Positions 24,359 to 60,099 of a stretch of 64,000 nt of DNA are shown one piece after another. A program made the translations under genes and the position numbers. The notes beneath the pieces are model-generated. The model searched no databases, was not told where the DNA came from, and saw only the letters and a program-made list of their open reading frames with translations. The DNA is from Blasia pusilla (lineage: Eukaryota): assembly GCA_050084515.1 (NCBI GenBank), contig CM114271.1:24800001-24864000 (forward strand). The letters are read 5' to 3'. Position 1 is the stretch's first letter. The number at the start of each line of letters is the position of its first letter.

Positions 24359-24844
24359 GGTCTCACACCAAGCTCTCCATGGTGTGAAATCTCTCTCTTG
24401 TTAAACCAAATCCACTCTCCTAATGAGAGGCTTGGGTTACACACACAAGGCAAGGAGGACCATAGCTCCGCCACCTTATGCCAAGAGGTACAACAAAGAG
24501 AGAATGAGCTCTCAAGCTCTCTCTCTTGGAGCTATACCCCCTTCCCTCTCCCAAGCCCTCTCCACGGTGACCTATGCTCACACGTCACCTCCTTGGCTCT
24601 TGACCTGTTGTAGCGGGTCAAGGGCCACTTTCCAAAGTGGAAAGTCAAATATATCAAAGATAAGAATATACCCAAAATAGTAAGTTCCTCAATATGGCTC
24701 CAAATGAGCCGAAACGAAGGGGAAATCTGCTCTCTCACGTTATCTGTGGCCTCAGAAGGTCATCCTTAACCTCCTGAGACTATCCTCAAGTATCTCCAAA
24801 GACGCTCTACTAGATCTCGCCGATCTATCCTAAAAGACATAACA
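24359..24844 (-). repeat. About 490 bp 'head' repeat (LTR-like) abutting the tail of copy B
   Basis: Homologous to 33739-34223 and, inverted, to 35907-36347. Begins TGTTATGTCTTTTAGGATAG on the minus strand. Confidence 0.9.
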
Positions 24845-24846
24845 GT

Positions 24847-27800
24847 TGTCGTGCGCATCCATATTGCTACACAACATACATCGCTGTCATCGAACATACA
24901 CACAAACACGCACAATCCCATGCTAACTCATGGCATCCAACCAACGAGCCAAGAAGTACCAAAATATCTTGAATCGCCCCCCTACTTGGTGGTTAGGTCC
25001 CTCTAACTCCATATAGCCATCTCTCTGTACGTGCCATGACATACATCTCTCGGACGCTAAGAGAAAAAAGGCCGGATGCTCATGTGGCCCCATCGTTAGT
25101 CGTCTTCTTGTCATCCATATCACAAACACAAGTTGGAATCTAGAACTACCTATTCTATGTACATCTGAGACATATCCATCGTCCCCAAGGAACCCTAGTG
25201 AGAGGTGGCGTGAGAGATGCCATATGCCACCCTCTCAAACATCCATCACAGACTAGCATAATGGTTGCAGCACGGGTGGAACCACACAACATTCATAGCA
25301 AGCCTGCAAGAACTACAACTAAGCTCGGATCAATTGTATTGTCAATGTTAGGAAGGTGACATGACACACAATTACGCGTATGGTCCTTCCAAAAGATACC
25401 ATCGCGTCCTTCCAATAAGAGAACACCAGATGGAAAAACCTCACGCACTCTCAAGATAATACGCTACGCAATCATATCCAACGTGGTGGGTACCGTTTGC
25501 TGCAAGTAGACATAGTCTCCTTGATGGAACCTCCGGATAGTCAGCCGATAACCACCTCCCCGAATAGTTGCGTACCTCAACGTATCCGGATATTGCGCAA
25601 TCGCCAAGTTTTTGAACGCCATGTGCATCACTCCGAAACAGCTCAACCCTTTGAGAACATGCTCGCATCCATACATCAGGGTCATCAAGGTTCAACACCT
25701 TACCAACATCTTGATGAATGGCCGTAGGTAAATCCGGCTCTCGGCCATAAAGTAGCAAGTACGGTGAGAAAGACGCTGAGGATGCTTGCTTGCTGAATTT
25801 ATATCCCATCGCCAACCACGGAAACAAGAGGTCCCAATCTCCTAGGTGACCTCTCTGCAAGCCATACTTGCGTAATCCTCTCTTCACCGTGTGCACAACC
25901 CTCTCCGCTTGTCCATCCGCTTCAAGATGATCTTGTGAAGTAGTGCGGTGGTCGGTCATCGCCTCATCACACAAAGTCTAAAACTTCCCACGAAACTCTT
26001 TACCCTGGTCTGTCAACACCTCAACTAGTGTGTCGTAATAACTCAACACTTGATCTAGGAAGGCAAACGCAACTCTCTGACTCGCTTTGTCAGGAAATCA
26101 ACCAACTCTATCCAATTTTAGAAGTGCTCGATCATCACCAATACATAACGACTATGGCGCTTCAGCAAAGGTAAAGGTCCTGAAAAATCCAAACTCCATC
26201 AATAACCGAAACCCATCATTGGGAGTGGATGTAACTGTGGAGTTGGAGCATTGAACGATGCTTGGACCCAATCACACACCATACACCTAGAAACAAATTG
26301 TTGAACATCAGTTTGCATGCCTCGCCACCAGTATTGTATCTGGAGCAAACTATATGTCTGCTTCACTCCAAAATGACCCAACTCCTCGTGGGCATGATGC
26401 ACCAAACGTGCTCTCTATGAAGGATGAGGCACTATACGTTCTCTACCATCCTCCCAAACTCGCAACACATATGTCCCCTCCCACCGGAACCGTCTAGCTC
26501 GTTGTAGGATCCGATCCCGCTCTCTAGCACCCACTATGCTCGCGACGCTGCCAGTACCTAGGTACTACAAGACTACTCCATCGTCGTGAATGTCTCAGCC
26601 ACTTGTCATCTCCTCATCGGGCTCTGGATCTAAGGAGTCTCCATCAGACCTGGCTATTGAAGTCTCAGCAATCTGGCTCTCCATAGCCAACAAGCCCCAG
26701 TAGGCATGCCATCCTCACAGCAACTCCTCATCACTCACTCCATGCCAACGAGTTCTAGTCGCATCTTGCTGACTCGGGCATGGGTTATGGCTCAAACCAT
26801 ATGCATCCTGGTTGAGCATCCTAGATCTATGCACCACCTCAAAATCATACTCTTGCAACAAACGAGCCTACCTCGCAATTTTCCCTATAAGCTTGTCGGA
26901 CTCCATCAACCACTTAAGTGGATGATGATCATTACTGATGGTAAAGACGTTGCCAAATGGATAACACCTGAAATGCATGACAATCCACACTGCATCCAAG
27001 CAATCATCCTCTTACAAGCTATATTTTGCCTCTCGAACATAAGCCACCACGAACTCTCTACCCTCATCGTTATGCTGGGTGAGCACGGCTCCAAGCCCCA
27101 ACATGCTCCAATAAGTATGCAACAAGAAAGGACATCCCCTGATTGGTCTCCTCAATATGGGCACGGACGTCAATCTATCCTTGAGCAGCTGAAATGCTCT
27201 CTCTTGCTCATCCCCCAGTGCCACTCCTGATCCACCTTGGTCAGTAAGGTCAACGGCTTCGCAATCGAACTGAAACCCTTGACGTACTGTCGATAGAAGT
27301 TCGCCAATCCCATGAATGCACAAACTTGACTCACATATGTAGGGCGTGGAATGCGTGAAATAGCCTTTACCTTCGTCAACTGCATACCAAGGCTACCTAT
27401 GTATATTATATGATCCATGTACTCAATCTAGTCGTAGAAGAACTTGCACTTGCCTGGATGTAGCTTCAGCCCATGAAACTGCAATTGTCAAAACACCTCC
27501 TCTAGATGTTGCTCATGCTCCTCAACCATGGCGCTGAAGACTACAATATCATCAATATAACACCTAGAAAAATCTAGACTTACCAAGAGCTTACCCATGA
27601 CCCTCTGAAACTCATCCGAGGTGTTCTTTAACCCAAATGGTAAGAACCGCCACTAGTACAAGAAATCCCTCCCATGAGGATTGATGCCCCAAAATGCGGG
27701 CTTCTTCCTCTAATCTGATAGATAGCTGATGGTATTTGACTCAAAGATCTAAGGAACTAAAGAACTTTGCATGCCCAATAGCATCAAAGATCTCATGAGG

Positions 27801-30800
27801 GGTGGGCATGGCATACCTGTCAGACTTTGTTTGCCGATTGACAGGTCGGTAATTTCCACACATCTGCCTATTTATCCAGTTGGCATGCACATACTTCTTG
27901 GTGGGCATGACAGTGGCAGATGCATACTCTCCATGCAACATCTCCACTAGTCCTACTCCAACCAAGTCCTAGCTTTTTTTCAAAATTAGAGAAAAAGTGG
28001 CTTTTTCTCTGAATTAGAGCCCTCTCCATGTCACTGTACGTGTAGGGTCGTCGGAAGATCGACGTGTTGCTCCACAACTCAATGTGGATCCCTAGACCCT
28101 TCAGCGTACCCAAATCATACATACTTAATGCCAAAAACTCCTATAACTCCTAAGGAACTGACGTATCCGACGCCGCTCTCCTCCTATCAACTTAGGGCCC
28201 ATATCTGCCTCCCAAGTCTCCATCATAACTATGGTAGGACTCTCTGGCGCGGGTGTTGGTGGTTGCTATGGTACAACCCTATTTTAGACAGTAGAACTCG
28301 GATGGCTATAGGGAAGCAGCGAGTTCTGTAGGAACTCCGATCTCCTCCACGTGCAGTACCCTGAACCACACTCGATGTTGTGGCTATCATCTCCCTACGT
28401 ATGTGCAAAATATCGCAAGAAGTCCAAGGATGTCTCTCCCGATCATCCCTAGTGTGTTGATCTCCTTGGGTCTTGCCCCCAGCCATTGCCTCAAACGTCT
28501 CGGTAGGCATGGGGATCACTAACGCAACAACGGTGATCTCTCGCAACCTCAAACAACGTTGCTCATCTACTCCTAAGCTGACAATCCATGTCAAGCAGTT
28601 CAGGTCTATCGCTTGATCCAAGACATGACATCATGATGCATCTGATAGTGATGATACTGCCGTCATTCCCATGGTGAATCCCATCGCTCGCTCTCGCTCA
28701 TCGGTGTTGGGTTCCACCAACCACTGTACCTGGTCATCCCAAACCAAGCCAAATTCGGCCTCTTTGAATGCATAGGAAGCGGGAAAACTCAAAAATGTGG
28801 GAAAGGCTACCCGTGGCATGCCAATCCTGTTGACCATAGTCAACAAAGGTTGATCATCATGTCATTTTGCTTGTGATCGACAACGTGGATCCAAAATAGA
28901 ATCCACCAACAATTCAGACGGACACTCCACTCTTGCATACGCCCTCCGCAAAACCTCATGTGGCACCAAGTTGGTCCACCAAGACGCCGACGATGTGCTT
29001 GTGAATCCACACTCGCGGCATCCAATAACACTAATGGGCCAATCCATGCGTGGATATGATATGCTCTCATCACCAATCGAGACCTCGAATCGTCCAAAAT
29101 TGGCACATTCTCCAAAATGTATGTTGGAGAACGAGACTGATGCTCCTGCAAGTGTTGCAAGATCCGCATCATCTCCCAAAAAAAATTGGATCAAGAGTTA
29201 GCTAACCCGGTGCCTCGTCCAACACTCGAATGGTCCTAATACGGCCAACCAGCAATGACCAAATCTATGGTCCCTACCCACTCCAAGTCATGCACCCCTA
29301 GCAATGAAATGTCCCTTGGTAGGGAACTCTAGTATCCCTCGATGGCGGACGTAGACAACAAGTCGGGAAATCGGAGGCGTAACTTCACCACATGGGGAAG
29401 TAAAGCACGCCTTGCATCATCATCAATCTCAACGTACAGGTACCGCTGCACACGCACTCTTGTCTGCAAAACATCAGCTAATCCAATGTTGATCCCTCCA
29501 AAGAGATCCAACATGAAAATACCTTCCTCTAGGATGCGCCACACAATCGAGATGGTGTCTAAAGGGCTTATAGTAGCACTTCTAGCTACCTCGGGTTTCT
29601 CTGACCCATCATGCTTTGTTGCAAATGCTTCACTCCACGCCATCTGCACGTGCTCAACAGCTAAGCGTTGGAGCTCTTCAATTGAGCCCCACAGCGGCAC
29701 CTCTCCTCGACAAAATGATGTGGCTACTAGAACACTCCTCTCCCTAGAAGTGTCTGGCGCGGGGTGTCTTGTGCATGAACATGACCTTCAATCAAATCAA
29801 AAGGCCACATGATGGCGTTGCTAAATGTTGCTAAAGTCGCCATTTCTCTTGGCCGTCGCTTGATCACTCCACCCGTGAATTGAACGAGTAACAAACTAAG
29901 TTGCCCATCACCGAACTGCCATCTTGGTATGTAGGATGGTGACTCCTCCTAGTAATCTAGGGAAAACAGTGCTCCATCAACCAAGATGTCATAGGGTCAG
30001 ACTTGGCATCGGTCACTATCGCCTTGGCTTGCTCTATAGACTCATCTATAGGATGTCCTGGGAAAATCCTCACCATGACCTTCTGTCGGGTCATAAACTG
30101 TATGGTACTCGCTCCACCTAAGGATGTCTGTATCGTGAATGGATAACGCTTCACATCGGTCCTCGTCAGGCCCAACCCTACAAATGCCGCTTTCCCCAAC
30201 ATCAAGGGTTGCGCTCCTGAATCTTACAAGACAAGCTGCGGACAAAACAATCTACCTCATGGACTCACCAACTGGAAGGTCTCTCCCCGGTTATCCACCA
30301 ACACAACACCTAGAGCAACCATGGCATACTCTATTGCGGGTCTAGCAAGCATCTCGGCCATCCTAGCAGCCGCAATCTGCCATGAATCTGATGTGGACAG
30401 CCCGAGCGTAAGCTCCAAGGGCATGTCCATCACCTCCTTTGCAATCACCTCTAAACGTGATGCAGGAACACCATCTCCATGCTCAAATAGCATAGCGGCC
30501 AGTCAAAAAACCTCGGTAGGGATACCTCCCAACGTCATAACATCGATAGGAGAAAACAAAGGAGCCCGGTACACCATTGTGGCCGCCCCCAATAGCGTAC
30601 TAGACACATACTCCTCCCGAGCATCAACAATAGGAGTCTTTGCGCTCGCTTCTCCCATTGCCTTCCGTGCCTACACACCAACAACATCAACTCTCCGGGA
30701 ACTCTCATCAGGACCCATTGATGGGGTCCTCATCGCCTTGGACAACATGAAAGACTGAGGAAGCCTCATATGTTTTCCGCCTTCCTCTCTTTGTGGATCC

Positions 30801-33800
30801 AACTCTACGGCGGTTCCACATGTAACAACAGTGGTTGTCTCCAATTGGCCAGTCGCGCACATCTAGCTAAAATCCTCCATATCTCCGATTGCTCTATAAG
30901 AAGTCGATGCCACAGATCCGGCATCAGATAACCTCAATGCGATAGCAGAAATCTGCTGTTGTAGCTGCTGTATGTGAGCAGCTATCCCAGCCTCTTGCCC
31001 AACATCTCCCTCGACACGTCTAGGTGGTGGAACTCTACCTCCTCCACCGGCAACTCCACCATCCCCTCCGACAAATCCAGCTCCTCATCCCCCAACAGGA
31101 CCACCTAGTCCATGACCTCTAGGCCCACCCTTATCAACAACTCGCTCTGGTGCCCTCTCTAGCCCTCGGTCTGGACATAACTTGGGATGTAGGCTAAAAC
31201 ACTTGGGGCGTGTATGACCGTACCTCTGGTAGTAGTCACAGTGATAAACTCTTGGTGCAACACCATCTCCTCCTCCATGTTGAGGCACGCGCCCATGAAC
31301 CTGACGTGTGCAATCGTGGTGGTGATGGGCTCCACCACATGCCCAACAAATAATCACACACGGCTGCTGCTGAGTTGCATATGAAGGCGCAGGTCTATGT
31401 GGCACGGCCTCTTGGTATCCTCCTTGAGCTCATGGTGCCACATACCTATCTCAAAATCCAAGTTGCTGCACTGGTGGTGCAGGCAATCGTGATTGCTCTT
31501 GCCTAGAACCCATGGTGGCTACCCTCTCCTCCGCCATGTTCCGCTCAATGTTCTTGACGATCGTAAAAACATCTCTCAATGTAGGTGAGGTGTGCTTAGA
31601 AGCATCCCATCCCAAAATGAAGACGGACGGTGCAACTGCTCCAATGTGAGTTACCCCTCCTAAAACATCACAGGTGGAAGTGGAAGAGGAAGAAGCCTCT
31701 CTTGACTCCTCCTCCTCATCTGCAAACAGCTCAGTCCATGACACATAGTGTGGGTCATAGTAGAGTCTCTATACCTCAATCTCTTGGGCATGTCTGTGGG
31801 AGAACTCATGGTAATCGTCCATGGGCGCCCCCTCTAAATGCTGCAGCATACCGTTCCATGTTGTGAACGAGTTGAACTCTCTAGAGTTCCTAGCCCGTTG
31901 TGAGTCGCACCAACTCCTAAACTCTGTAATGAAGTCGTATAGCTCTATGGTATCTATAGCACCCGAAAATCTACGCGGTCCTCTACCCCAATCGTCCAAC
32001 TTGTACGCCCAACTAGTAGGACCACTCAATGTGTGCGGTAAATCATTAACACACTCCTCTACACTCTCCCCCTTGTGTAAAGACGACACAGAAGGAGGTC
32101 GAGGCGGTCCATCACATGGAGACCTTCGAAACCTCGTGCCACTCCGCATAAATCCTCTGGAGCTACTCTCAGGTCCACCACATGGCCTCTCAAAGTCCCA
32201 AAAGGACGCCGTGATGACCCTTGTGCTATGCTCACGCGATCACTCTTCATCTCATGAGTAATCCCTCAATCACTCAATCCAACATGCAGCACTCAATCTA
32301 CACTCTCTCTCACTGAGACGTGTACTGTGCGACAACAAGCGGCGTGGTGCAGCAAATCGGTTGATCTCTTGTCTCATGAACAACATATATCCTCAATTCT
32401 GGACATCCCGCATAGGTCTAAATCCATACATCAATGATGCTCTCAACATCTGGACGAAACCCAATATCCCAAAAATTGCCCAATACCCGGAATTCCCTCA
32501 CATGTGCAAGGCAAAGGATCAAAATGGGTAACGTAAACAATGTCGATGTTGCTCCTCAGCAATTGCAAATCTTGATCTCAAGTTTCCCAACTTGGTCGTG
32601 AAGAAAAACTCCTCCAAGTAGCACGTCGTACTCCCCTCGTACTGATGATGCTCAAATCTCCTCGATGTGCGGTGCGGGTCCAACGGTACGGTGCGGCACT
32701 GGAAGCACAGAACGATTACACACGGCACGTCACTCAAGAATGGATGTGGAATTCAGCGGAAAATCCTCCTCAACAACAAAATAAAATCTGCTCCCTAGTG
32801 ATGGTGCGACTCCGTAATCGAGACGGTGTGGTGCGGCCGCAAGCCGCACGGCACGGCAATCGGCGGCGAGTTGCGGCTACGGGCATCATGGCACGGTATT
32901 CGATCATCGTCGAGCGGCTACCAGTCACGACATAGCAAAGTAGAAAAAAATATATGACTCCATCAATCCAAAAAAGTTTCCTGTCATCGCTGAGCGACCA
33001 ATCCATACTCGGTTGGTGACGAATTGTTACAATATAATATCGGCATCGAGAAAAAAATTGCAAATCAACCGTCATATTTCTGACGGTGCAAGAATAGTAG
33101 AGGGCACCCGTTGACGTTGTCGGACGGACTCAAGTCGACGGACGGAATGGGATAAATGTCGATGGAAAGACATAGATCCGACTAGCTTGCGTCACGAGAG
33201 TTCGAGTCGAGGCTGAATCGGGAGCCAGAGGCCGAGCGACGGGCGTGGGAGACAGACGCCAAGAGTCACAAAGCCGCAAGTCCAGCACCTAGACCCCCCA
33301 CCAGGAAATCTTCTTCATTCGACCTTCCAAAAAAAATTGACGAGGACTTTCGTGAAACCCAACGTCTCTTCTCTAACAAATTTTTCAGCTGCGCTTCCGC
33401 TCTCATTACTCCCAACAAAAAATTCAATTCAAACGTGTAAAATCAGAAATCAGAGAGGTACATGGTGCTCCCAAGAGCACCGGCATGGGGAAATTTGTTT
33501 CCAAACTCAATTTCTAATAGAAATTGAACAGCCCTTCCACTTGACACTCTCCCACACGAAAAATCGAACAACAAAATAGAAAATGGAGTGGCTCTTGCTC
33601 CCGCAAACACTCCCATGAGCCGCTGAATAGAGAACGCAGTCTCCAACATGCACCAACATCAAGTGACCAACAAGCTCCTAAATTGAAGCTCTCTCACTCC
33701 ATCATTCTATCTTTGTAAGTCAATCGAATCTCTCACAAGGTCTCACACCAAGCTCTCCATGGTGTGCACTCTCTCTCTTTTCAAACCAAACCCGTTCTCC

Positions 33801-34223
33801 TAATGAGAGGTTTGGGTTACATACATAAGGCAAGGAAGACCATAGCTTTTCCGCCTCATGCCCAGAGGTTCAACAAAGAGAGAATGAGCTCTCAAGCTCT
33901 CTCTCTTGGAGGTATATCCCCTTCCCTCTCCCAAGCCCTTTCCACGCTGACCTATGCTCGCTGGTCACCTCCTTGGCTCTTGACCTATTGTAGCAGGTCA
34001 AGGACCGCTTACCAAAGTAGAAAGTCAACTAAACCAAAAATGGTAACTTACCCAAAATAGTAAGTTACTCAATATGGCTCCAAATGAGCCGAAACGAAGG
34101 GGAAACCTGCTCTCTCAAGTTATCCGGGGCCTCAAAAAATCATCCCCGACCTCCTTAGGCTGTCCTCTGTATCTCTGATGGTGCTCTACTAGGTCTCGCC
34201 AATCTATCCTAAAAGACGTGACA
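24847..34223 (-). mobile_element. DNMT-retroelement copy B, full length (about 9.4 kb), decayed, nested in opposite orientation inside copy A
   Basis: Head at 34223-33739, gag with CWACGGAH..C knuckle (about 32150-31100), protease (about 30230), methyltransferase (about 29515-28590), RT (about 28100-27200), RNase H, integrase (HAHEELGH..CMVC), PHD (about 25295-25170), tail ending GCGCACGACA. Confidence 0.92.
28590..29515 (-). pseudogene. DNMT3-like C5 cytosine methyltransferase domain of copy B
   Basis: MLDLFGGINIG, DLVIAGWPY (Cys>Tyr), YILENV, AHRRRL, ERERAMGF and DQAID motifs. Confidence 0.88.
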
Positions 34224-35904
34224 GAGATCGGATCCTACAACAAGCCAAACAGTTTTAGTGGGAGGGGACACATGTGTAGCGAGTTTGGGAGGATGGTAGA
34301 GTTCATGTAGTGCATCATTCTTCGTAGAGAGCTCGTTTGGTGCAGCATGCCCACAAGGAGTTGGGTCAATTTGGAGTGAAGCGGATGTACAACTTGCTCC
34401 AGATATAGTATTGATGGCGAGTCATGCAGACTGGCGTTCAATAGTTTGTTGCTAAGTGCATGGTGTATGATCGAGTTCGGGCATCATTCAATGCTCCAAA
34501 TCGGTAGTTGCATCAATTTATGATCATAGCTCTAGGTTATAGATGGAGTTAAGATTTTGCAAGATCTTTACCTTTGACGGAATGTCATAGTTGTTATGTG
34601 TTGGTGATGGTCGAGCACTTCTCGTAGTGGATAGAGTTGGTTGCATTGCTTGACAAAGAGAGTGAGGGAGTAGCGTATGCCTTCCTAGATTGAATGTTGA
34701 GTCATTATGGCGTACCAACTGAAGTGTTGACTGACCAGGGTACCGAGTTTCGAGAGGAGTTTCAGGCCTTGTGTGATGAGGTGCTAATTGACCATCACAC
34801 CAATTTGCGAGATCATCATGAGGTAGATGGACTAGTGGAGAGGATTGTGCAGATGGTGAAGAGAGTTTTACGTAAGTATGGCTTGCAGAGAGGTCAGCTA
34901 GGAGATTGGGACCTCCAATTGTGGTGGTTGGCGATGGGGTACAGATTCAACAAGTAGGCAGGCATGCATCCTTAGTGTCTTTCTCGCCGTTCTTGGTGCT
35001 TTATGGCCGAGAGTCGGATCTACCTACGGCCATTCATTGAGATGCTCGTAAGGTGTTAAACCTTGATGACCATGATGTATGGATGCGAGCATGTTCTTAG
35101 AGGGCTGAGTTGTTTCAGAGAGTGATGCCTATGGCGTTTGAGAACTTTTCAATTGCACAATATCGGGATATGTTGAGGTATGCGACTATTTGGGGAGGTG
35201 GTTATCGACCTACTATCCAGAGGTTTCATCAAGGAGACTATGTCTACTTCTACTTAACGACATCCACGACATTGGATACGACTACAAGGCGTATTATCTT
35301 GAGAGTGCGTGAGGTTTTTCCATCTGATGTTCTCTTATTGGAGGATCGAAATGGTATGGTTTGGAAGGACCATATGCATAATTGTGCGCCATGTCACCTT
35401 CCTAACATTGACGGTGTAGTTGATCTCAGCTTAGCAGTAGTTTTTGTAGGCTTGCGATGTATGTTATGTGGTTCCGCCCGTGGTGCAACCACTATGCTCG
35501 TATGTGATGGATGTTCAGAAGATGGCCTATAGCATATCTGACGCCACCTCTCACTATGGTTCCTCGGGGACAATGGATGTGCCCTAGATGTACATAAAGT
35601 AGATAGTTATAGATTCTGACTTGTATCTGTGACATGGATGACAAGAAGGCGACTAACAATGGGGCCACAAGAGCACTCGATCTTTTTTCTCTTAGCGTTC
35701 TAGAGATGTAGGTCATGGTTGGTAGGGATCGATGGCTATCTATAGTTAGAGGGACCTAATCACCAACTATGGGGTGATTGGAGATATTTTGGTACTTCTT
35801 GTCTCGATGTTTGGATTCCATGATATAGCATGGGATTGTGTGTGTTTGTGTATATGTTCGGTGAAAACGATGTGTGTTGTATAGCAATGTGTATGCGCAC
35901 GATA
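34224..35904 (+). mobile_element. DNMT-retroelement copy A, 3' part (integrase, PHD finger, tail)
   Basis: Resumes at RDRILQ..WEGTH, about 200 bp downstream of where the 5' part stops when compared with copy C. EVLTDQGTEF, CMLCGS..CDGC..H..CPRC; tail ends GCGCACGATA. Confidence 0.88.
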
Positions 35905-35906
35905 GT

Positions 35907-36631
<725 letters not shown>

Positions 36632-36689
36632 AATACCTCCAAGTATTACAAATTTTTAATCTCTTTTCATATGTCATTTGTAGTTTATC

Positions 36690-37260
36690 AGGAAATCGTG
36701 ATGGAGTGTGCTTAATCTATGTTGTGATGCTTATTATAGGGGATGAAGCACCTATAGCTCATCGTCATACATTTGAGGCATTAGACTGTACGTTACAAGA
36801 TATCATGGAAGTGGTTTCTGATAATCTACCACATATATCATTAAGTGACAAACTCATAATATTTGGTGGTGACTTTTGTCAAGTTTTTCCCATTGTTCGT
36901 CATGGGGACCGTCCACAAATCATCCAACCCATTATAAAGAGGTTTTCTTTATGGTCTTATATAGGTGATGAAATTGACGAAAAACAAGCAAGTTCAAAGG
37001 TTGGAAGGTTATTTGCGTGCCTAACAACAAGCTTTTGCTGATTGGTTATAAGACGTGGGAGAAGGTCATGTACCTTAACAACCTTATTTGGGAGAAGACT
37101 TTATACGATTATCATCTGAAATGGTTTGTTAATAAAATATGCGATTTTATTGATATTATTTAGCAAAATTCTCCCAACCGATGGGCCATCTCCACATTAT
37201 TTGTGTTTGAAGATTAGTACAACAATCATGCTCTTACAAAACATGAATGGCACTTTGTTC
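36690..37260 (+). pseudogene. Helitron PIF1-like helicase fragment
   Basis: LIIGDEAPIAHRHTFEALD..LQDIM, GGDFCQVFP, and later PH..CLKIST..MLLQNMN. Confidence 0.85.
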
Positions 37261-46320: not shown

Positions 46321-49300
46321 CTTCTACTCCAATCGGATCCGAGGAGCGCAGTAGTTCCGAGTCCTTCACTGATCCAGGTGCGCTCAAAACAGCAGATCTT
46401 ATTCTGCGAATGGGTTTCGGACACCGCGGACAACAGGGAGCTAAGGAGGACCAAGGCATGCGGATCACAAGCACATAAAACGGGCCCTGGGAGAAAACTG
46501 AAAGGGCTCCTTCTACCTATCTATCTCCCCTACATCCATTCTGGATGAAACGCGAAACAGAGCCCTTCTCGGGGCAGAGGACAGAAAAACAAACTGTCCA
46601 ACTCTCCTCCCGGACCTCTCCTCTGCTCTGCTCTTGCCTTCCTTCTCTGCTGAAAGCGGGACCTCCTCTCCACCCACGCATGCCACCTGCGTCACGTTCA
46701 GTTGGTGCCTGTCCCAACGTCGTCGCCTATTCTCAAGCACGAGGCTAATCCATCCGTCATCCTGCCATCAGGGGCCTCGGATAGGTTATCGGACGGCTGT
46801 CAGTTTCTGTCCGATAACGGATGACGACGGGAATGGTGGGGTACGCACGGAATAAGTCGGCTCCCTTGGTAAGTCTCGTAGAGAGCTGGACGCCACCGAC
46901 TAATCTATGCTGAGGCCCTTCCGGTACCAGCCACGTAGGATTACCTCCTCGGGATGAACGTGGCAGTACTCAGCTCAATGTCCACGTGTGGACTTGCCCT
47001 CTGCGGGACTCCGCGGGAGTTGCTGTTGAGTCATGAGATGGAGGGAAGACCTTGGCTCCGTACATGAACTTGGCCCGCGTACGCGCCCCTCTGGAGGTTC
47101 GGGTTCAAGAGGTGGCGGGCCCGTCACCCCTCCATCCAACAGTCCACTGCCCATCCGTACCGGCAGCCGCGGAACCCGTGAAGCTGTCCCGATATTCGTT
47201 GCGGCGTCTCCCCGTCTCGGGACGCCGACTCAAGCGACTACCAGTCTCCCCCACACCCAAGCTACCGTGGAGATTTTCCTACAATTCCAGAGCGGAAATA
47301 ATGGAGCTACATGCGTCGATTTCACAGTTGCCACGCCCTGGTTGGCTGAACGCCATGTTACAATTCTCCTGGGCCTAAGCCCTCGGTGGCGGCTAAGGAC
47401 GTCTTTGCTGCGTGCCTGTTCCCTCGTTCGCGTCGAGGCATCTTTGGTTGTTCCAACAAGCGAGACTAAACTAAAACGTAAGGTTTTCATGACTCCTTGC
47501 CACCCATTCCTTTAGTATTTAAAAGTTGACCAAAAAAATCAAGTGACTTTCAGTATGATCAAGTTCTCTAGCTTTTCAAGTTCTTAAAAAACCATGCTCA
47601 TGAATGGTATGTTTTAAACCATGATTAAAAGAAATCCTTTGTAATTTTTTTGAACGAAATTCTAAGCGTTTCCGCTTCTTATTAAAATTAGAATTATTAA
47701 TTCATTTCTGTTTCCCCGTAAAAAAATATTACAATTCTATGAAAGGTTCTTACCCAATATCTAAAACCCATAATGAAAAATCTTCATAGCCACATGAATT
47801 TGTTCATATTTGAATGATTGTAAGATTTCAAAGTTCGTAGCATGTCTTATTATCGAGTGAAATTCTACTCCCAATCACGTCAAACTTTGTTATTTCCTTT
47901 CCGCTAACCTTAATGCGACAATAAAATTTTACTTCAATAAATTTCAATGTAGCGAGAAGATGAGACGACCTCACAAGATCCAGATATTTATTAACAAATG
48001 GTACGCTTTTGTGTTATTGTTATCCATCTTCAAGATTTCACACTAATGGGGAGGAATTTATTGGGCCCAGTGCTTTAATTTTTGAGATAAAGTATTAACT
48101 TTTCGTTCAATGGGGCCGAATACCCAAAAGACATATAATTGACATCGGCCGATACTCCAACATTGACTTTGTCGAGCATTTCCTTACGTTTGTGAGATAT
48201 TACTTCCTACTCTTCCTTCTTTGCTTGCGATTTATGTTTAGTAGGCTTCTATTATTTCTTGACATTTTTATTCCATCTTTCAACCCCATCTCATACCGAG
48301 CCAAATTAGGCTATTCTGTTTTAATCTTTTATCCTTCCATACTTTCCTTTCTCTTAGCGTGGGATAGGATTAACTTTACTTAACGTTAGTTTATTTATTT
48401 TCAATTTGAAGACGTCGATAAGTTTCCTACCAATCCATTTGGGAAAAAGTTAAAGAAACACATGAAGATCACTTCTTGATCACATCACTCAATGTTCTAA
48501 GCCATTAATTCGAGTTTTAATGAAGCCCACGATTAAAGAGACAAGGCTGGATTTAAACCACTTTAAATGCTCTTATAGCCACTTAAACTGGCCAATTTTA
48601 AATGAAACAAAGTTAGTTTTAGGGCATGGTTAAGTAATAATTAATCACTAGTAAGGTGCATGTGAGATGCCTGGATAAAAAAGATTTTTTTTATTATGAA
48701 AATAATTAAAAAATTTATTTCATGAAATATATTTTTATACACAATGTTTCAATTGTATTATTTTTTCATTGGAATGTGTATCATTATAGATCATAATATG
48801 AATTGAACTCTTTTATCCTACTCTAGATAACGCCACATATGACTTGCCATGAAAAAGGCATGCATGGATAAATATTTTCCAATCTTTCGTAAAGTTTGAT
48901 CTTGTGACTTATTGATAGTGATGGAAAAAGCTGGACGGATAGGGAATTAGGATCTACATAAATCAAAAGGCAACCCTGACTCATAAGAAATCAATGGGAT
49001 ATGAGGAATGAAAAGTCAATCTCCAATGTTCTTCCTTGTAATAATTTCAGCATCAATATTATGTTGCATGAATCTACGAATGATTAACCGAGTGTCATTC
49101 ACTTGTCCTTTTGCCCCATTCATGTTCCGTAAAACCACAATTGGTGCATCAATCTTCAAACACAACCGATGTGGAACCAGTCTAGAAGGTAAGCATATAT
49201 TCAAAAACTCTGTCACATCTGAGTAGCCAATAGGCCGAGATCTATCGTGGATAGGGCGTAGGAGCCAGCGGACTATCTTGAGTGTAACTTTATCCCACGG

Positions 49301-50519
49301 TGTCGGATGAGGTTGAGGATAGGTCCATTGTGTCAAGAACGTCGTTTCTGACAACTTTCATGTTGAGGTCTTTTACATCCGGATGACTTGTTGACCAGGT
49401 CACCCGCCCCTGGTAACTTGGGCGCGCACGTTACCAAGGGGAGGGCTATTTTTAGGGGAAGAGCCTTTTGGCTCTTCCCAACCCTATATAAGAGAGGAAG
49501 ATGGCTTCCATAAGCAATCTTTCTCATGTTGGGCCGTTGGAGCACCTCCCTTGTATGTGTGTGAGATAGGACTAGGGTGCTAGCGTCCGGATTCCTTGAT
49601 AGCACAGGGTGGACGAGGCTCGACATGCCGATGTAGATTGAGGAGTGGAGTTTTAGACCGGGTGTGCCATTTTTACTACTCTTTATTTTTTACATGAGAA
49701 AGATGTTAGGGGGCTGGTGGGAACTCATTGTTTGCAGGTAGGCAAGCGAGTTGCCTTGGTCGGGAGCCCCTGGAGACGCGTGTGTTGCGGGTGTTTGGAA
49801 GGGCATGGGCGGAAGCGCTGTCCGTTTTTCTCAGATTTTGCTGGTATGGATTGACGCGGTACAGCAGCCGAGTGTAGTGTGCGGTGGAGCGTCGGGTGTA
49901 CGCGAGTGAGGATGTCGAGAGAGAGAAGAAAAGAGAGTTAGGGCTTGCAGCCGCCGGGGGCGTTGACGGGCGTTTAGGTCGGCGGGCGCGGACAGACGGC
50001 GCGGACGGCGGGCGGCGAGGGCGCGCCCCCCTGTGTGTGATTGAGAGTGCTATGTATCGAGTAGTAGCTGGTGCTAGGTGGGTGCAGTGATGGTGACGAG
50101 TGTAGATTCTTTTCATGTGTAGCATGTTGGTGGATTACGGCGGTTGCCGAGTAGGGGTTGCGTGTATGACCCAAGAGAGTGCCACTAGGTTAGGTGAATC
50201 AGTTGGGAGGCTCATGGTGAGCGTGAGTGTTGAGCGTGCGTGAGGCCGGGTATGTCATCACGGGATTGATGTTAGCATAGGTGAGCTAGTGAGGCGTGTG
50301 GGAGACTCTCGGTGAGTCTAAGTGCTTGAGCGGGTGAGACAGGGTTTGTCATCACGGCGTTCTTCCAAGGTTCGGAAAATGGGGTAGTGCGAGCAGTAGT
50401 AGTGGTGTGACACGGAGTGGAGTGAGATACCGAGGGGTTACCTGTGAGGAGCTACCTTGACATCCATCCGTGGCTGGATAGTCATCATCGACACCGGTCG
50501 GTGGCGAGATCGCTGCATG

Positions 50520-51800
50520 AGACGAGAGTATTTGGCAGGAGATGGACGACATGGGCCATCGAGGCATGCGTCGTTTCTCGGGTGCAGTGGGCACCATCGA
50601 CTTAGATGATTTTATCTAGGAGTTTGACACATGGTGCGACTTCCAGGAGATACGGACCCCGACACGGGTCAACCCTTTCATGGCATGGAAGGGGTTGTTC
50701 CAGTACTTGGAGGGTCCTCCAATGGATGACTACATGGAGTTTCCATCACTACATTCAATAGAGATTGATGCCTGGAGGATGTATTAGGCTCCAGGGTATG
50801 TGTCCACTAATGGTCGCGAGGCATATGATGGGATTGTGAGAAGAGAGAGACCCACACCATAAGCCCGGAGACTAGATGGAGAGGAGGGCAGTGAGACAGG
50901 CGATGTGGCAGAGACCTCTGGTGGTAGAGGGCCACCCAACTTCAGCCCCACAGTGGAGTTCTTCCGACAGTTAGGGAAGAGTTACCAGGGCTTACGCACC
51001 GACAAGCTGAAGAGTCTATAGGATTTTCAGCGACGATCGGGTGAGAGTCTGAGAGAGGCATTCACAAGCATGAGGAGGCTGATCATTGCTACGTTTGGAG
51101 GATCGAGGCGCGATCACCCGATTGGTGACGGGTTCGGACCGAAAACTACGGAGGAGAGTTTGAGATGCGGTGCTGAATCACAAAGCGAAGCCCACATTGA
51201 AGGTAGTCTTTGAGTTGTCAAAGCGTATTGAGCTCAACATGAGTGAGGAGCAGGTAGTGACCGCTGGATTTTCTCGGGAGTCGACGGGTCCACGAGCGAC
51301 GGTGACCCCATAGGTGCCACAGCAAGCACCAGTATCACGGGAGCGGGCCAGTGTGCCTAGAGAGCAAGGCGGGTACCGTGAGCCTATGAGGCAACGACCC
51401 GTACCTACATATGTTGCCCAGCAGGGACCGATGTGGTCTTGTTGGACGTGTGGAGGGGCCCATAGGCATAGAGACTGCCCACAGCATGGGAGAGGACCAC
51501 CAGTGCCTCCAATTGCTCAGGAGCCACAGAGGATGGTCCCACCACAACACCAGTGTGACCATTGCCATAGATATGGTCACACTAGGGATAGATGTTTTGA
51601 CCTTCGTCGAGGGGCACGTCCAAAGGTAGGCCGAGGGCCTTGGGGCGGTCGTCCTAGAGGAGGTCAGGGAGTTCATCCTGGACGTGGTGGTAGAGGACCA
51701 CCACCAACTAGAGGAGATGGAGCAGGAGCACCAGAGCCGCCACTTCTCTCATGCATCGATCAGTTGGAGCAGAGGATTGTTGCCATGACGATGATGCGCT
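50520..51800 (+). pseudogene. gag of copy C with two zinc knuckles and an RGG-rich stretch
   Basis: RRFSGAVGTIDLDDF..WKGLFQYLEGPPMDDY; CWTCGGAHRHRDC and CDHCHRYGHTRDRC. Confidence 0.8.
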
Positions 51801-52429
51801 TTAGGAAGGCACGGAGCTGCGAGCAGCTAGTGTGACTCCAACTTCTACCTCTTACCCTGACCCGAGTAAGGATCTTGCCAGTATAGGATTTATGTGTAGT
51901 ACAGCCCAGGTTGAGGCATCTGCAGTGGTGACTCGGGGTGCTGCGAGAGGCACCGAGCCATGGAGAGGTGGAGTTGAGATTGACCCACCAGAGGGGACCG
52001 ATGGGCGGCAAGCCAGGGTTCCACAGTCGTTCACATTGTCGGAGGCACTACACACACCATCGATGGTGCCTCAACGACCAACGGTGCCTACAGTTCAGGC
52101 ACCTACGTCGACGTCACGAGGAGTTGGAGTGACAACTCCTATGCCGGCTCGAGTGGAGTCAATGTTGACCATAGTGTTGGAGGTGGCCACCAGAGTGAGT
52201 CAGACTCCGCTATTTTCCGCCATAGATTTGGCGACGTTGGGGGTTGGACCAGCTGAGGTGTTCCCGTTGGCCGCCACGTTGTGTGAGCGTGGAGAGATGA
52301 CTGCTTCTTGTTCAGAGGTAGTTGAGGAGGTGGTGGACTTGCCATCAGAGCCGGTGCTTGGGACGTTCCCCACAGAGTCATGGCATGCGGCGGCGGCGAA
52401 GTTGGTAGATATGCCAGCTCGACCGGCCA

Positions 52430-52900
52430 TAGAACGAGTAGTGGTGACACCTGGAGTAGTGTTACTGGATAATCGAGCTGGAGTATTTCGCTTGGTTAGT
52501 CCGACGGGGACTATATACCACCCGCAGCGCGTCCTACTTGATTCGGGAGCGCAACCCTTGATGTTAGGGAAGACGGCGTGTTTACCATTGGGATTACGGA
52601 AGGCCGACATTGAGCCTTGTCCCTTCCAGATCTGAGACCTCAATTGGGGCGTATCACCCACTCAAGATATGACTCGACAGAGATTGTTGTTAGAGTCCGG
52701 CCGAGTATCGACGGATAGTGCTATGGTGCGCACACATGCGATTACGACACTGGCCGTAAGTGCGATGTGTTGGTGGGGAGTACAGTGTTATATCCCCTAG
52801 GATTCATCCTTGACTTCTGGGAGGAGACCGTTGCTAATCGGCCAAGATGGCCATCAGGTGACGGCCAGATGAGTCAGTTACCCATGCAGTTTGCGGGACG
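52430..52900 (+). pseudogene. Retropepsin-like aspartic protease of copy C
   Basis: VLLDSGAQP active-site motif and downstream DVLVGS..L. Confidence 0.85.
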
Positions 52901-54190: not shown

Positions 54191-54654
54191 GATAGTCAGC
54201 CTAGGTATGGCTGAGCAAAGACGGATGCGAGTGTCATCCATGTCGTCACGTCCACGAGTTGGACCATTGCCTACAGGGTCTGTATAGGCATTGGTTGGGG
54301 GCAAAACAAGGAGAGATAGGCACCCATGGACTTCCTGGGACGTCGTTCAAGCAGAGAGTGCGAAGGCCGCTAGAGTAGCACATGTTCATTTTTCGGATGC
54401 GGAGCATGGTGTAGGAGGTCAGAGTGGAGTGGATGTTGCGGAGGTGGCTAGGGTTGCTACATAGCAACCAAAGCCCGAGGTTACGTCCTCTCTGAGTGAG
54501 GTCACGATGGAGACTTGGGAGCTTGTGATAGGTCTCAAGTTGATAGGAGGAGAGCGACGGCGAGTTCATAGGTTTCTAAGAGGGCATGTCAGTTTTTTTG
54601 CCTTCAGTATGAGAGACTTGGGTATCGCTGAAGGGTCCCGGGATACGGATTGAG

Positions 54655-55940
54655 TTGGCTAGTGATACGTCGATCTTTCGTCGACCCTACAGGTATTCTT
54701 ATATGGAGCGAGCCTTGATTCAGAGCAAGAGTCAGGACTTGTTGGAGGGAGGACTTATGGAGTTATCACATGGGGAGTATGCATCTCCCACAGTCATGCC
54801 GACAAAGAATGATATATATGGCAATTGGACGGATAGGCGGATGTGTGGAGATTACCGTCCTATCAACCAACAGACGAGGTCAGATCGGTACGCCATGCCT
54901 ACTCCCGAGGAGATCTTTGATGTGGTAGGGAATGCAAAGATCTTCAGTACTTTAGATCTCCATGATGCTATCATCATCTTCTTATTAGGTTGGAGGACAA
55001 GGAGAAGACAACATTCTGGGGGATAGATCGGTTCGGGAGAGATTGCTTATATCAGTGGCGGTTCTTACCATTTGGGTTGAAGAACGCGCCTGCAGAGTTT
55101 TAGAGAGTGATGGATAGGATTCTCGCTGGCTTGGATTTTGTACGATGTTACATAGATGATATTCTTATCTTCAGTTCCATGGTTGAGGAGCATGAGCGAC
55201 ACTTGGAGGAGGTGTTTCGGCGATTGCGTTACATGGACTGAAGTTACATCCAGGCAAGTGCAGATTCTTTCAGGAGTAGATTGAGTACTTGGGACACATC
55301 ATATACCCGAGTGGGTTAGGCGTTCAGAGATGAAGGTAGAGGCTATTGCGCAGATTCCACGCCCTATAGATGTGAGTCGGGTCCGAGCATTTCTTGGACT
55401 GGCGAACTTCTATCGACGGTATGTCAAGGGTTTTAGCGCGATCACAAAGTCTTTGACCTTGTTGACGAGACTTGATCAGGTTTGGTTGTGGGGAGACGAT
55501 CAGGAGCGAGCATTTTAGGAGCTCAAGGACAGGTTGACGTCCTCACCCATTTTACAGAGACCGGTTAGGGGTCGCCCATTCCAGTTACATATGGATTGGA
55601 GCATGTTGGATCTAGGAGCAGTGCTTACTCAGAGGGATGACGAGGAGAGGGAGTTCGTTGTGGCTTACGCGAGCCGATCAAACAACATTGCAGAGGCGAA
55701 GTACAGCTCCTACAAGGGAGAGTGCTTGGCTGCAATGTGGGCCATGCCACATTTCATGTGCTATTTATTCGGTAACCCTTTCACACTTATCACTGATCAT
55801 CCGCCGTTGAGGTGGTTGATGGAGTCCGACAAGCTCACGGGAAAGCTTGCTAGGTGAGCTCTTTTACTACAGGAGTATGAGTTTGAGGTGTTTCATAGGC
55901 CAGGTCGGCTGAACCAGGATGCGGATGGGTTGAGTCATAA
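54655..55940 (+). pseudogene. Ty3/Gypsy reverse transcriptase and RNase H of copy C
   Basis: RMCGDYR, FSTLDL, LPFGLKNAP, CYIDDIL, FLGLANFYRRYV, VVAYASRS, ITDH.PL. Confidence 0.95.
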
Positions 55941-56199: not shown

Positions 56200-57581
56200 G
56201 TGAGTGCTAGGGAGCGGGATCGGATCCTAGAGAGAGCCAAGAGGTTCAGGTGGGAGGGGACTCACATTTTGCGGGTATGGGGAGATGGTAGGATACGAGT
56301 GGTTCCTCATCTTCCCATTGAGCACGTGTAGTGCGACATGCCCATGAGGAGTTGGGACATTTCGGAGTAAAGCGTACTTACAGCTTACTCCAGGTTCACT
56401 ATTGGTGGCACGGCATGCATCTTTGGGTACAACGGATTTGTGGCGGATGTATGGTATGTGACAGAGTGCAAGCATCCTTTAATGCTCCAACTCCGCAGTT
56501 ACATCCTTTGCCGATTATGGGTTTAGGTTATCGGTGGAGTTTAGACTTTGCGGGACCTTTGCCATTGACGGGACATCATCATAGGTACGTGTTGGTCATG
56601 GTGGAGCATTTCTCCAAATGGATAGAGTTAGTGGCACTACCAAATAAGGCGAGCGAGGGAACAACTTATGCATTTCTAGATCGTGTGCTTAGTCACTTTG
56701 GTGCACCGGTGGAGGTGTTGACTGACCAGGGTACCGAGTTCAAGGGAGAGTTTCAGGCCTTGTGTGATCAGGCGCTGATAGATCACCACACCACGTCCAG
56801 AGATCATCCTGAGGCGGATGGGTTGGCGGAGAGAGTGGTACAGCCGGTGAAGAGAGGATTGCGCAAGTATGGCTTGCAGCAGGGACAGTTGAGGGAGTGG
56901 GACCTACAGTTGCCATGGTTGGCTATGGGTTATCGCTTTGGTCGGCAGGCATCCTTTGCATCATTTTCACCGTACTTTTTGCTCTTTGGGAGAGAGCCAG
57001 ATTTACCTGCAGCGATTCGACGTGACATGGTGGAGGTGTTAGATCTTGATGATCCAGATATATGGGTACATGCATGTTCTTAGAGGGCAGAAGTTTTTCG
57101 TAGAGTTATGCCTATGGCCTTTGAGAACTTAGCTATTGCCCAACATAGAGATACATTGAGGTACGTGACCATTCGTGGAGGAGATTATCATCCAGGGATT
57201 AGAAGGTTTCATCCTGGAGATTACGTGTATTTACAGCAGGCGGCACCCACAACGCTAGATGTCACTGCAAGGTTCACAATCCTACGTGTGCGCGAGGTAT
57301 TACCGACCGGAGTCCTCATGTTGGAGGGACGGGATGGTATGGTTTGTAAGGATCATGTGCGCAATTGTGCGCCATATCATCTTCCGAACGTAGATGGGAC
57401 GGTGGTTCTGAGCTTGGCAGTGGTACCTGCAGGCTTGAGGTGTATGTTGTGCGGATCTGCGAGGGGTGGAGCCACCATGTTGGTATGTGATGGTTGTTCT
57501 TGAGGGTGGCATATGTCATGTCTGACCCCCCCTCTTGATGTGGTTTCCACGGGACGATGGATGTGTCCGAGATGTGTATAG
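56200..57581 (+). pseudogene. Integrase with C-terminal PHD finger of copy C
   Basis: HHCC motif (HAHEELGH..CMVC), SLDFAGP, LTDQGTEF, DGLAER; PHD CMLC..CDGC..WHMSC..WMCPRC at 57441-57575. Confidence 0.93.
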
Positions 57582-60099
57582 GGTAGTAGGTCATGTTAGA
57601 GAGATGTGATATTTTCTATCTGGAGTTTGGGAGATCCAACTGCCAGCTAGGGGCACGGTTGTGTGATCTCCATGTATATGTATGAGTTGATTTTTGTACA
57701 TGTGTGGATCGACCCGTGTGTGGGGAAGATCGGTGTTGTGTGGTATAAATGTGACCAGCGATGTATGTTGTGTAGCGATATGTATGCGCACGACGACAAC
57801 TCTGTTGAATAAATATAATTCATTCCCTCATTTGTAACAAAATCAATACTAAGATAAATATGGTTTTGTACATAATATACACTTTTTAGAAAACATTTTC
57901 CCAAAAACTTAGTCTAAATTTGATAAATTAGACAAAATTAAGTCATTTTCATTAAGAGTAAGAATATTAAGAATAAAAATTATTACCTATCCATAAAATA
58001 GAGACATGACTTATGTATTTATGTCATCAACATCTCTATTTCTTGGTTTAAGAATAATTGTATCTCTCAAAAATTTGATGTCATTAAACCTTTGAAGATC
58101 ATTCCCATATATAATATCAATAAGATAATTTACATTCTTGCTATAAGCAATCATGTTAGATAGTAGTGGAATAAAATCTTCTCCCAAAGAAGTATGTAAC
58201 GGAAACACCTAAAGCAATACCTCCCTTACTTCTTACTCTTGCAAGGAGAAAATTATATAATAAGGTCTTTTATGTTCCACCTAGGCCATCCATAAAAAAA
58301 ATTTACATAAGGTTAGATCATTATGTGTCATGTTATCCAATTGATCTTGCAATTGATTGTGTATAGCATCCCAAATGATCCATTGTCCATCATTCAAAGA
58401 TGCCTCTCCACTTCTAACTTGCTCACGTAAGTCATTTTGATTATATAAGAGTGTCTCTTCCTCCAAAAGTGTTTGTGAATGAGGGGATTCAAAGTTAGGT
58501 TGTGGCATATCTGGAAAATCATACAATCTCTTTCGAAGATCTTGCAAATGATAATGCAGTGTTAATGGTAGAAGCATCAAGTGGAAGATTCGGAATTCTT
58601 CTTATCTGCAAGGACAACCGATATAAATCTAAAAGCTATCCATAGATATGGTTGTGAATAGGAAGAAGGAAAAGAAGAAGAAAGATGAACAAAGTTCTAA
58701 TTCTTTTGATTACCTCATGTTGTTCATATAATATATCCTCTATGAGTGGAGCCAAAAATTGACTTCATGCTACAATCAATCTAGTAGGTATATTATAAGG
58801 CAAAATAACAACAAATAATTGGCAAAGTGAGGAACCGATGCGAATCTCTGAAGATTCTTGTAAGCAAGAGAAGACTTCATTATCATCCTCAAGAAGTCCC
58901 AATTGAAAAGCAACTTCCTTAAAAGTTGGATGTATTACTCTATGTACAATTCTCAAGTGTTCATAGAAAGACGCACCTAGAACATGATGAAGAAGTAATC
59001 GTAGCCAATGACGTTCTACGTCAACTGTTGAAACATATGTAATTGGTTGGATCATTTAGTATCGGAAAAAAATCACTTATTTTCTTACATTAAAATTTGA
59101 AAGTTAAATAAGAAATTCAACCCAAATTAAAATAATGGCTACATAAGCATAGTACAATATATATTGTTTACTTGGATATGTAAGGCATAAATATCCAATA
59201 AGATGACGCAACCATTTATTCTTTGTATTCTACGAACTCTTTTTTTTTTACTCCAACGATAATATAAAGGAAAGTTATGATCTAAATACTCTCGAGCCAT
59301 TCGATCCAGTTGACAAGAAATAAACCATTGAGCTAAGGTGGTCTCCCTATTTCTTTGTAAAATATCTCATGCATGTCAAAATCACTGATGTAAACCATTT
59401 ATGCCTTTGCTAGATGAAGAGCCAATCTCATTACACTTGGATGTTCAACATATAAATTAAACTTGAAAAGTTGCCAACATGCCTCTAAAGAAGAGATATA
59501 CCTACATACAATTCCAATATAACTTACTTTATAGACTTCAATGTATATAATGTCATTAAAAAATTGAATGAGAATTAGAAAGAGAATAAAATTCTGTTAA
59601 GTTTACCTTGCATCGAGATATATGTTTATCTCATAGATGATCTCCATTGTCGTGGAGGTATCCATATCTTTTGAGACCTTAAATGATATAACATCAAATC
59701 CCTTACATACATATTTATATAAGTATTTCACCGCAGAAATATTATTTCTGATCTCCAAATTAATTTGAAAATCAAAGAGGATATATAATAAAGGATTATA
59801 AGGCATGACCCATCAATTATCCAAGCACTTGTCGCGCTGAATTATCTTCTTTCCATCGTCCAATCTAGCGAATGTAGCGAGAACAGATATAAGATATAAG
59901 ATATGAAGATTAGAAGAGATGAAAGATATATGTAGGATTTACAACCAAAAATAAATAAAATTTATACACTACAAGAAGCTCTACTTTAGAGTTCATTGAG
60001 AAATTAATAGTTTAAGAACCTTTGATAGATTGGGTAACCATCTTCAATCTCCGAAGTCAGAGCCGTAAATGCCTTGGCATAGCCTTTGGTATATTTTTT

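Follow-up and report, generated by a model that had tools for sequence, protein, structure and literature searches.

Does a PHD finger at the C-terminus of a retrotransposon integrase influence where the element inserts? The question is raised by a 64,000-nucleotide stretch of the Blasia pusilla genome (contig CM114271.1, positions 24,800,001 to 24,864,000; hereafter the window), in which the initial annotation placed such a finger in three copies of one element and proposed that it steers integration into H3K4-unmethylated chromatin. Copy A (49211-57798) is a Ty3/Gypsy element of the KnitGypsy-Dnmt3 kind that encodes, in this order, a gag with two CCHC knuckles, a protease (PR), a DNMT, a reverse transcriptase (RT), an RNase H (RH), an integrase (IN) and, at its coding end, the PHD. 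The following features were assigned to this copy.

49211..49690, + strand: repeat A, which begins TG, with a TATA at 49485
49692..49704, + strand: putative self-priming site, a 13-nt complement of 49517-49529 (0/5000 shuffles)
50548..52900, + strand: gag-like region with two CCHC knuckles (51440, 51554) and an aspartic protease (DSG at ~52540), from motifs and tblastn to P0081
53252..54200, + strand: DNMT3-like C5 cytosine methyltransferase, motifs I, IV, VI, VIII, IX and X in canonical order
54462..54470, + strand: family-wide in-frame TAG that separates DNMT from RT, with CAA-CCA after it (a CAR-YYA readthrough context)
54634..55930, + strand: reverse transcriptase and RNase H; several frameshifts found in copy A only
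56322..57440, + strand: integrase with HHCC zinc domain, DDE core and C-terminal region, in the frame of the PHD
57441..57575, + strand: PHD finger (C4HC3) at the integrase C-terminus, from the six-frame pattern scan, Pfam and solved-structure matches
57648..57657, + strand: polypurine-tract-like G run straight before repeat B
57658..57798, + strand: repeat B, which ends CA

The gag-like and protease region (50548..52900) of copy A gave no Pfam match. The assignment to Ty3/Gypsy is based on the PR-RT-RH-IN order, the DDE integrase, the TG...CA ends and the target duplication. What departs from this class is the absence of two identical terminal LTRs, the ends reading A...B-A-B or A...B instead. 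Membership in the DIRS, PAT or Ngaro groups was rejected, as rve and Integrase_H2C2 domains are present and a recombinase match is absent, and a domesticated host gene is excluded by the target duplications and the decay of the copies.

The six-frame scan of the window returned a single complete C4HC3 match (57441-57575, +); its eight ligands are all in place, one premature TGA (57501-57503) interrupts it, and its frame ends at 57579-57581. With an X placed at the premature stop, the domain matched Pfam PF00628 with an E value of 3e-11 and 43.6 bits, above the cut-off of 24 bits, as well as 78 solved sequences, the best of which include PHF12, CHD4 and PHD1 of KDM5A/B. It shares one reading frame with the integrase, which contains one premature stop of its own (57081-57083). 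The fusion is real, because elsewhere in the family a copy has retained a natural open frame of 403 aa that spans both the rve integrase core and the PHD. Among the 30 closest loci, the PHD is unbroken in 23 and the frame stops one residue past the last Cys in 27. An artefact is ruled out by the Pfam match, the PDB matches and the 145 relatives described below. An AlphaFold model of the integrase-PHD reached a mean pLDDT of 42 (67-84 in the PHD part), too poor for pocket analysis. The other two window copies lie one within the other.

20769..36633, + strand: copy C, lacking its 5' end and interrupted by copy B (20769-24357, 34226-36633)
35789-35904, 35907-36349 and 36516-36631, + strand: repeats B1, A2 (followed by a GT run) and B2 of copy C
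24358..34223, - strand: copy B, of an older subfamily, nested in copy C and reading A1-internal-B1-A2 after loss of B2; PHD at 25161-25295

The annotated presence of the finger in all three copies holds for copy A, whole save for its one TGA, but copy B retains six of the eight ligands (25161-25295, -; Pfam E 5e-7), and copy C keeps a frameshifted remnant (35458-35591, +) that gave no Pfam PHD match. Repeat A2 of copy C contains an expanded GT microsatellite (36349-36510), and a fragment at 14900-15898 (-) represents a fourth copy of this Gypsy family.

The breadth of the module was assessed in 162 relatives, comprising the best 150 cluster representatives of a profile search and 15 earlier proteins, with three overlapping; 147 of the set are 50%-identity cluster representatives. 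The C4HC3 pattern was found in 145 of them, a Coleochaete transcript and a Scenedesmus pol being named members of the lineage, and since the profile query contained the PHD, this figure shows breadth and not the presence of a PHD in every lineage member. These sequences identify the integrase-PHD as an old, lineage-wide module of a green-plant Gypsy lineage that also bears a DNMT3-type methylase. The Blasia family itself is represented by ~10,000 decayed copies in the 390-Mb genome, where searches returned 10,694 candidates for the integrase end and 10,071 for the DNMT. The best PF00145 matches in the assembly (L051-L054; G000 C20 and C23) lie on small contigs with scores far above those of the element DNMTs, and may be bacterial contamination or host genes. 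Within single copies, identity between paired repeats is 93-100% for subfamily A, compared with 86-87% for copies B and C of the window. Every family copy examined is decayed, the longest open frame being 490 aa in the 20 full copies and 739 aa among the best 150 DNMT matches, a state that would suit a PHD that is a functionless remnant. We find this reading hardly credible, because all eight ligands are kept across clusters with less than 50% identity, and each in 19-20 of the 20 full copies.

We then asked how the PHD and the DNMT are expressed relative to each other. In copy A the DNMT is broken by a frameshift and has lost its catalytic Cys; the catalytic PC is present in 18/20 full copies other than copy A. 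A natural open frame of another copy resembled DNMT3A (E 4e-8) more than DRM2 (7e-4) or HhaI (5e-3), and the domain is intronless within the Gypsy element. We tiled 47 landmarks over the 20 full copies and scored open frames between the 46 neighbouring pairs. For 45 pairs, two or more of the 20 copies had a bridging open frame, but the DNMT-RT pair was open in 0/13 in-phase copies, because a fixed TAG (54462-54464 in copy A) stands between DNMT and RT. This codon is present in 19 of the 20 full copies, in 17 of them as TAG-CAA-CCA, and the same nine letters recur near 28268 in copy B, where DNA identity is only 71%. According to the accessible text of PMC2194720, CAR-YYA is the readthrough signal of tobacco mosaic virus. 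Thus gag-PR-DNMT forms frame 1, and RT-RH-IN-PHD lies behind a conserved stop. A single open DNMT-PHD frame is thereby excluded for the Blasia family. The annotated "same polyprotein" for the two domains stands insofar as both belong to one element and the enzyme is DNMT3-like, but not at the level of the frame, which the TAG splits.

The downstream frame is most likely reached by readthrough of the TAG; given the conserved stop in a CAR-YYA context, readthrough is probably the only source of the full polyprotein. A Met 15 codons past the TAG bears against readthrough, and a separate pol RNA could serve instead. The family is transcribed at a low level: three RNA runs each gave ~1,500 strand-biased reads out of 10-12 million, two thirds of which fit only partly, and RNA depth climbs ~3- to 5-fold from ~54400 on, which a separate pol RNA or mere cross-mapping could explain. 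Across 27 metagenome loci, the stop context was TAG-CAA-CCY, a partial match, in five and TAA-CAA-TCA in two, and no common stop was seen in the more distant group of these loci. While the DNMT of the Blasia family is in phase with pol but severed from it by the fixed stop, relatives P0009, P0081 and P0094 have a single frame.

This arrangement bears on an ADD-like partnership, in which the IN-PHD would bring the element's DNMT3 to chromatin and the enzyme would methylate the new copy or the target. Co-retention speaks for it: of 65 proteins that contain both RNase H and PHD, 47 also encode a DNMT in that frame, where it precedes RT in 4 and separates RNase H from integrase in 43, and P0081 holds protease, DNMT, RT, RH, IN and PHD in one 2811-aa frame. 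The analogy with the ADD domain of animal DNMT3, drawn by the initial annotation, fails in the Blasia family, where the DNMT ends the upstream frame and lies ~1000 codons and a stop codon from the PHD. Moreover, KnitGypsy-Dnmt3 produced no methylation in yeast, a result called inconclusive by its authors in the accessible part of PMC5890265. We consider the partnership very unlikely. As the DNMT lies before the stop and the PHD behind it, the PHD would accompany the integrase and not the methylase after protease processing. The two DNMT layouts, after RNase H and before RT, separate with a support of 99 in a quick integrase tree, from which the PHD was left out, as was P0094, whose PHD fails the pattern. 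A homologue search with the DNMT region yielded 3 proteins only.

In many distant relatives (P0015, 1650-1997; the clade of P0099, P0103 and P0157), ~350 extra residues with DPxxGxG-like and SPWF-like motifs follow the PHD. These tails resemble amino (N4C/N6A) methyltransferases; there are 59 long tails, and the atlas lead, N6_Mtase, stands at 0.82 only. Relatives with such a tail and a DNMT would be dual-methylase elements. No second methyltransferase was found in the family of the window. Another relative, P0213 (2710 aa), has N-terminal CCCH zinc fingers.

To evaluate what the finger could read, we mapped KDM5A PHD1 onto the alignment. As reported in the accessible part of 10.1101/715474, the H3 Arg2 and Ala1 anchors of this domain are the Asp after Cys3 and the C-terminal Trp; D312 and W335 weigh most in binding, E305A and D292A each bind ~6-fold more weakly, and K4 is held partly through backbone carbonyls, for which no acidic side chain is needed. 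Neutralising both acids of the BAZ2A PHD drastically weakened H3 binding (PMC5415848, accessible text), and the BAZ1A PHD, which lacks such acids, bound DNA and no histone peptide (PMC5636791, accessible text). The Arg2 Asp is present in 137 of the 145 relatives and in 20/20 full copies, and the Blasia family keeps the Ala1-pocket Trp; the second Arg2 acid, after Cys4, is missing from it. The H3K4me3 cage Trp two residues before the His occurs in 0/145 relatives. At the positions of E305, D306 and D292 the Blasia family has Ala or Gly. An acid at any of these (Cys3-5, Cys3-6, before Cys1) was found in 1/10 close versus 122/135 distant relatives, and at Cys3-5 or Cys3-6 in 0/10 versus 91/135. 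The domain of the Blasia family is net basic; the ten close relatives carry a net charge of 0 to +4, the others mostly a negative one, and the neutral-to-basic PHDs form an 11-row branch (SH-aLRT 95) in the integrase tree.

These residues divide the proposal that the PHD reads H3K4me0 and, in the manner of a chromodomain, steers integration into H3K4-unmethylated, TE-rich chromatin. Its fold, its position, the missing K4me3 cage Trp and the retained Arg2 Asp and Ala1 Trp all agree with such a reader, known K4me0 readers are among the closest solved relatives, and the partly backbone-held K4 of KDM5A (10.1101/715474, accessible part) indicates a route to it. The acidic contacts to Lys4 are gone, however, with all three acidic K4/R8 positions lost in the Blasia family. 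Because acids are present in 122/135 distant and 1/10 close relatives, the idea fits the distant relatives better than the Blasia family. For the subclade, which lost these contacts, we propose little discrimination of K4 methylation; by analogy with the solved domains, the loss may abolish H3 binding altogether.

The same residues raise the possibility that the subclade PHD is a basic DNA- or protein-binding module of the BAZ1A kind, holding target DNA, the internal att palindrome discussed below or its own multimer. The charge shift and the clade-wide loss of acids would be explained in this way, the BAZ1A PHD offers a precedent (PMC5636791, accessible text), and the ends of the element call for unusual processing. 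Charge alone is a rough measure, though, and the Arg2 and Ala1 anchors persist. In addition, relatives with acidic PHDs (L088, L096, L135 and L136) have the same split repeats, so the end structure is independent of a basic PHD. We judge this module improbable.

The steering proposal also makes use of insertion sites, since every copy was said to lie inside other TEs. The flanks of the window copies contain the following remnants, for which we take DUF4218 to denote CACTA and PIF1 to denote Helitron elements.

49070..49210, - strand: Helitron-type Pif1 2B remnant, left flank of copy A; PIF1 N-part at ~58200-58320 (-)
36676..36963, + strand: PIF1 remnant, right flank of copy C
17931..18107, + strand: CACTA-type DUF4218 remnant left of copy C

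Locally the statement is correct, with copy A in a Helitron-type PIF1 remnant, copy B in copy C, and copy C between CACTA and PIF1 remnants. As evidence of targeting it does not hold, as nesting is at chance genome-wide: after removal of two duplicate loci, 3' flanks were repetitive in 24/42 distinct cases versus 429/840 control tiles (51%, p=0.53), with repeats detected only against 600 kb, or 0.15% of the genome. When family DNA was excluded, the figures were 14/32 versus 207/618 (p 0.25). Family DNA makes up 23% of the sequence of 60 evenly spaced 10-kb samples and is already present in 36 of them. A Helitron preference gave no signal, 2 flanks matching versus 5/60 random samples. Before the duplicates were removed, the non-family flanks were AT-richer than controls (GC 0.386 versus 0.430, p 1e-4) and had lower CpG/CHG ratios (0.56/0.57 versus 0.68/0.78), which favors steering; this composition fits gene avoidance and also selection after insertion. 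The resolution of the test is low, with 42 flanks that are all survivors of selection, and it does not distinguish targeting from such selection. Overall, H3K4me0 steering by the Blasia family PHD is unsupported by these sequence data, and we hold it to be unlikely.

Elsewhere in the window, decayed CACTA/EnSpm pieces (DUF4218, DUF4216, Transposase_24) occur at 547-2084, 7562-7843 and 17928-18825. The interval 37250-48700 had no match in the sampled pool and probably contains host genes, with a weak, below-cut-off Pollen_Ole_e_1 match at 40383-40874. Within it, a 480-aa host open frame (44170-45609, -) gave no Pfam or atlas match; it has homologues in Marchantia, Selaginella and Diphasiastrum, and is closest to Marchantia and lycophyte proteins.

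The ends of the element provide a second line of evidence on how it integrates. Copy A is the short form, A-internal-B, flanked by a 4-bp duplication (ACTC at 49207-49210 and 57799-57802). Among 47 distinct copies, counted after two duplicate loci were removed, the 3' end is B-A-B in 26, short (ending at B) in 16 and partial in 5, and the layout A-coding-B-A-B was also found in five metagenome loci. Long and short forms alike have TG...CA ends and 4-bp duplications, the latter exact in 17/18 copies with both flanks and differing by one mismatch in the remaining one. A G run precedes the first B in ~50/52 cases. The 13 bases past A complement a stretch 32 bases behind the TATA, a match reached in 0/5000 shuffles; in 4/5 relatives a 10-16-base complement lies 31-32 bases behind their own TATA with different letters. 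No such complement was found in window copy B or in L080, and the RNA fold of the whole region was not significant (z -1.2).

The B|A junction reads CA, two bases, TG, the two bases being GC in 11, AC in 13, GT in 4 and others in 3 (n=31), a spread that would be as expected for decay of a CAGCTG palindrome. Small indels mark 5/31 A|B junctions, some matching primer-site bases, and numerous A|B variants appear in a DNA run. None of the 9 short copies with both ends read had the mirror form A-B-A-internal-B, an absence that a symmetric two-LTR-circle model fails to explain. Recombination between B repeats could be another source of the short form. Two loci, L045 and L049, contain an extra B and junction upstream of the first A (B-A-internal-B-A-B), possibly through multimeric circles or unequal recombination.

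Taken together, these ends suggest integration from DNA circles. The true LTR made by reverse transcription would be B+A: self-priming after A and plus-strand priming before B would generate B-A-internal-B-A, whose ends would be joined into circles. The PHD-tipped DDE integrase would then open the circle at the CA-GC-TG palindrome inside the LTR, a two-LTR circle yielding A-internal-B-A-B and a one-LTR circle A-internal-B, with 4-bp duplications in both. The DNMT3 would be made at Gag levels and the RT-IN-PHD through TMV-type readthrough, and distant relatives would add a second, amino-type methyltransferase behind the PHD. To this joint reading of a green-lineage-wide clade, with the LTR as B+A, circle opening at CA-GC-TG, DNMT3 at Gag levels, TMV-type readthrough and a tail methyltransferase in distant relatives, we assign a probability slightly short of even. 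Circles are usually dead ends for retroviruses. If the circle model is true, they are a productive intermediate of a family that fills about a quarter of a land-plant genome, and the range of substrates that a DDE integrase can use changes.

For the finger itself, the best overall explanation is a weak H3-tail tether of the integration complex, nearly blind to K4, that travels with the integrase, a proposal to which we give an even chance. In this mechanism the DNMT ends frame 1 (gag-PR-DNMT), and RT-RH-IN-PHD would most likely follow via readthrough. The PHD would most likely tether the complex to nucleosomes through the free H3 N-terminus, weakly; the Ala1 and Arg2 pocket residues are present, and the binding is predicted from them. 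Insertion would then be widespread, leaning no more than slightly toward AT-rich intergenic DNA, and nesting would not be targeted. Most members of the lineage have acidic PHDs and the Blasia subclade has a basic one, a natural contrast that, together with ~10,000 mappable insertions, makes the steering of integration by a transposon PHD testable. With its thousands of DNMT3 genes, such a family may in addition have influenced methylation of the host.

PHDs in transposons and a DNMT3 in a charophyte Gypsy element have each been published already. The integrase-PHD fusion appears to be undescribed for this lineage, reader domains on retrotransposon integrases being known, and the readthrough stop and the permuted LTR are more surprising features than the PHD. 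The accessible article text that we covered contains no account of an integrase-PHD fusion in this Gypsy lineage or of the readthrough stop, and does not explain the split repeats; bioRxiv supplements could list such fusions. REM1 is reported to have its PHD in a separate antisense frame.

The closest known system, compared by description, is KnitGypsy-Dnmt3 of Klebsormidium nitens (PMC5890265, accessible text), which shares the Gypsy domain set, an intronless, non-permuted DNMT3-like domain and A-coding-B-A-B repeats, noted there as like those of DIRS-type elements and left unexplained. Its DNMT is described in the Pol ORF, whereas that of Blasia is cut from RT by the fixed stop, and the term PHD is absent from the text and three supplement files of that paper, its figures lying outside this check. 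Chromoviruses likewise have a putative chromatin reader at the integrase C-terminus, and some of their clades self-prime (PMC6317226, accessible part); the Blasia family differs in its PHD, split repeats and DNMT. No chromodomain Pfam match was found at the integrase C-terminus of the Blasia family or the relatives tested, and the term PHD does not occur in the accessible part of that plant LTR survey (PMC6317226). PHDs are common transposon accessories with a proposed influence on insertion or chromatin, as in CR1, Chlamys PLEs, REM1 and cnidarian fusions, but the accessible parts of these reports describe no C-terminal PHD on a Gypsy integrase together with DNMT3 (PMC6673714, PMC8557442, 10.1101/2021.11.30.470311). 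With KDM5A/KDM5B PHD1, BAZ2A and BAZ1A, the Blasia PHD shares subtype, spacing, Arg2 Asp and Ala1 Trp (accessible parts of 10.1101/715474, PMC5415848 and PMC5636791); it differs from KDM5A/B and BAZ2A in lacking the acidic wall and the N-terminal acid, as does the DNA-binding BAZ1A PHD (PMC5636791, accessible text). EpiLTRs and DAM-LTRs, as described in the accessible part of 10.64898/2026.05.21.726589, are also LTR elements with a methyltransferase and a chromatin reader, in their case a chromodomain and a DNMT4-related DNMT rather than the PHD and DNMT3-like enzyme of the Blasia lineage. Finally, the split direct repeats A1-B1-A2-B2 are shared with the tyrosine-recombinase elements PAT and Ngaro (PMC7192593, accessible text), from which the Blasia family is set apart by its DDE integrase, TG...CA ends, 4-bp duplications, polypurine tract and self-priming site.
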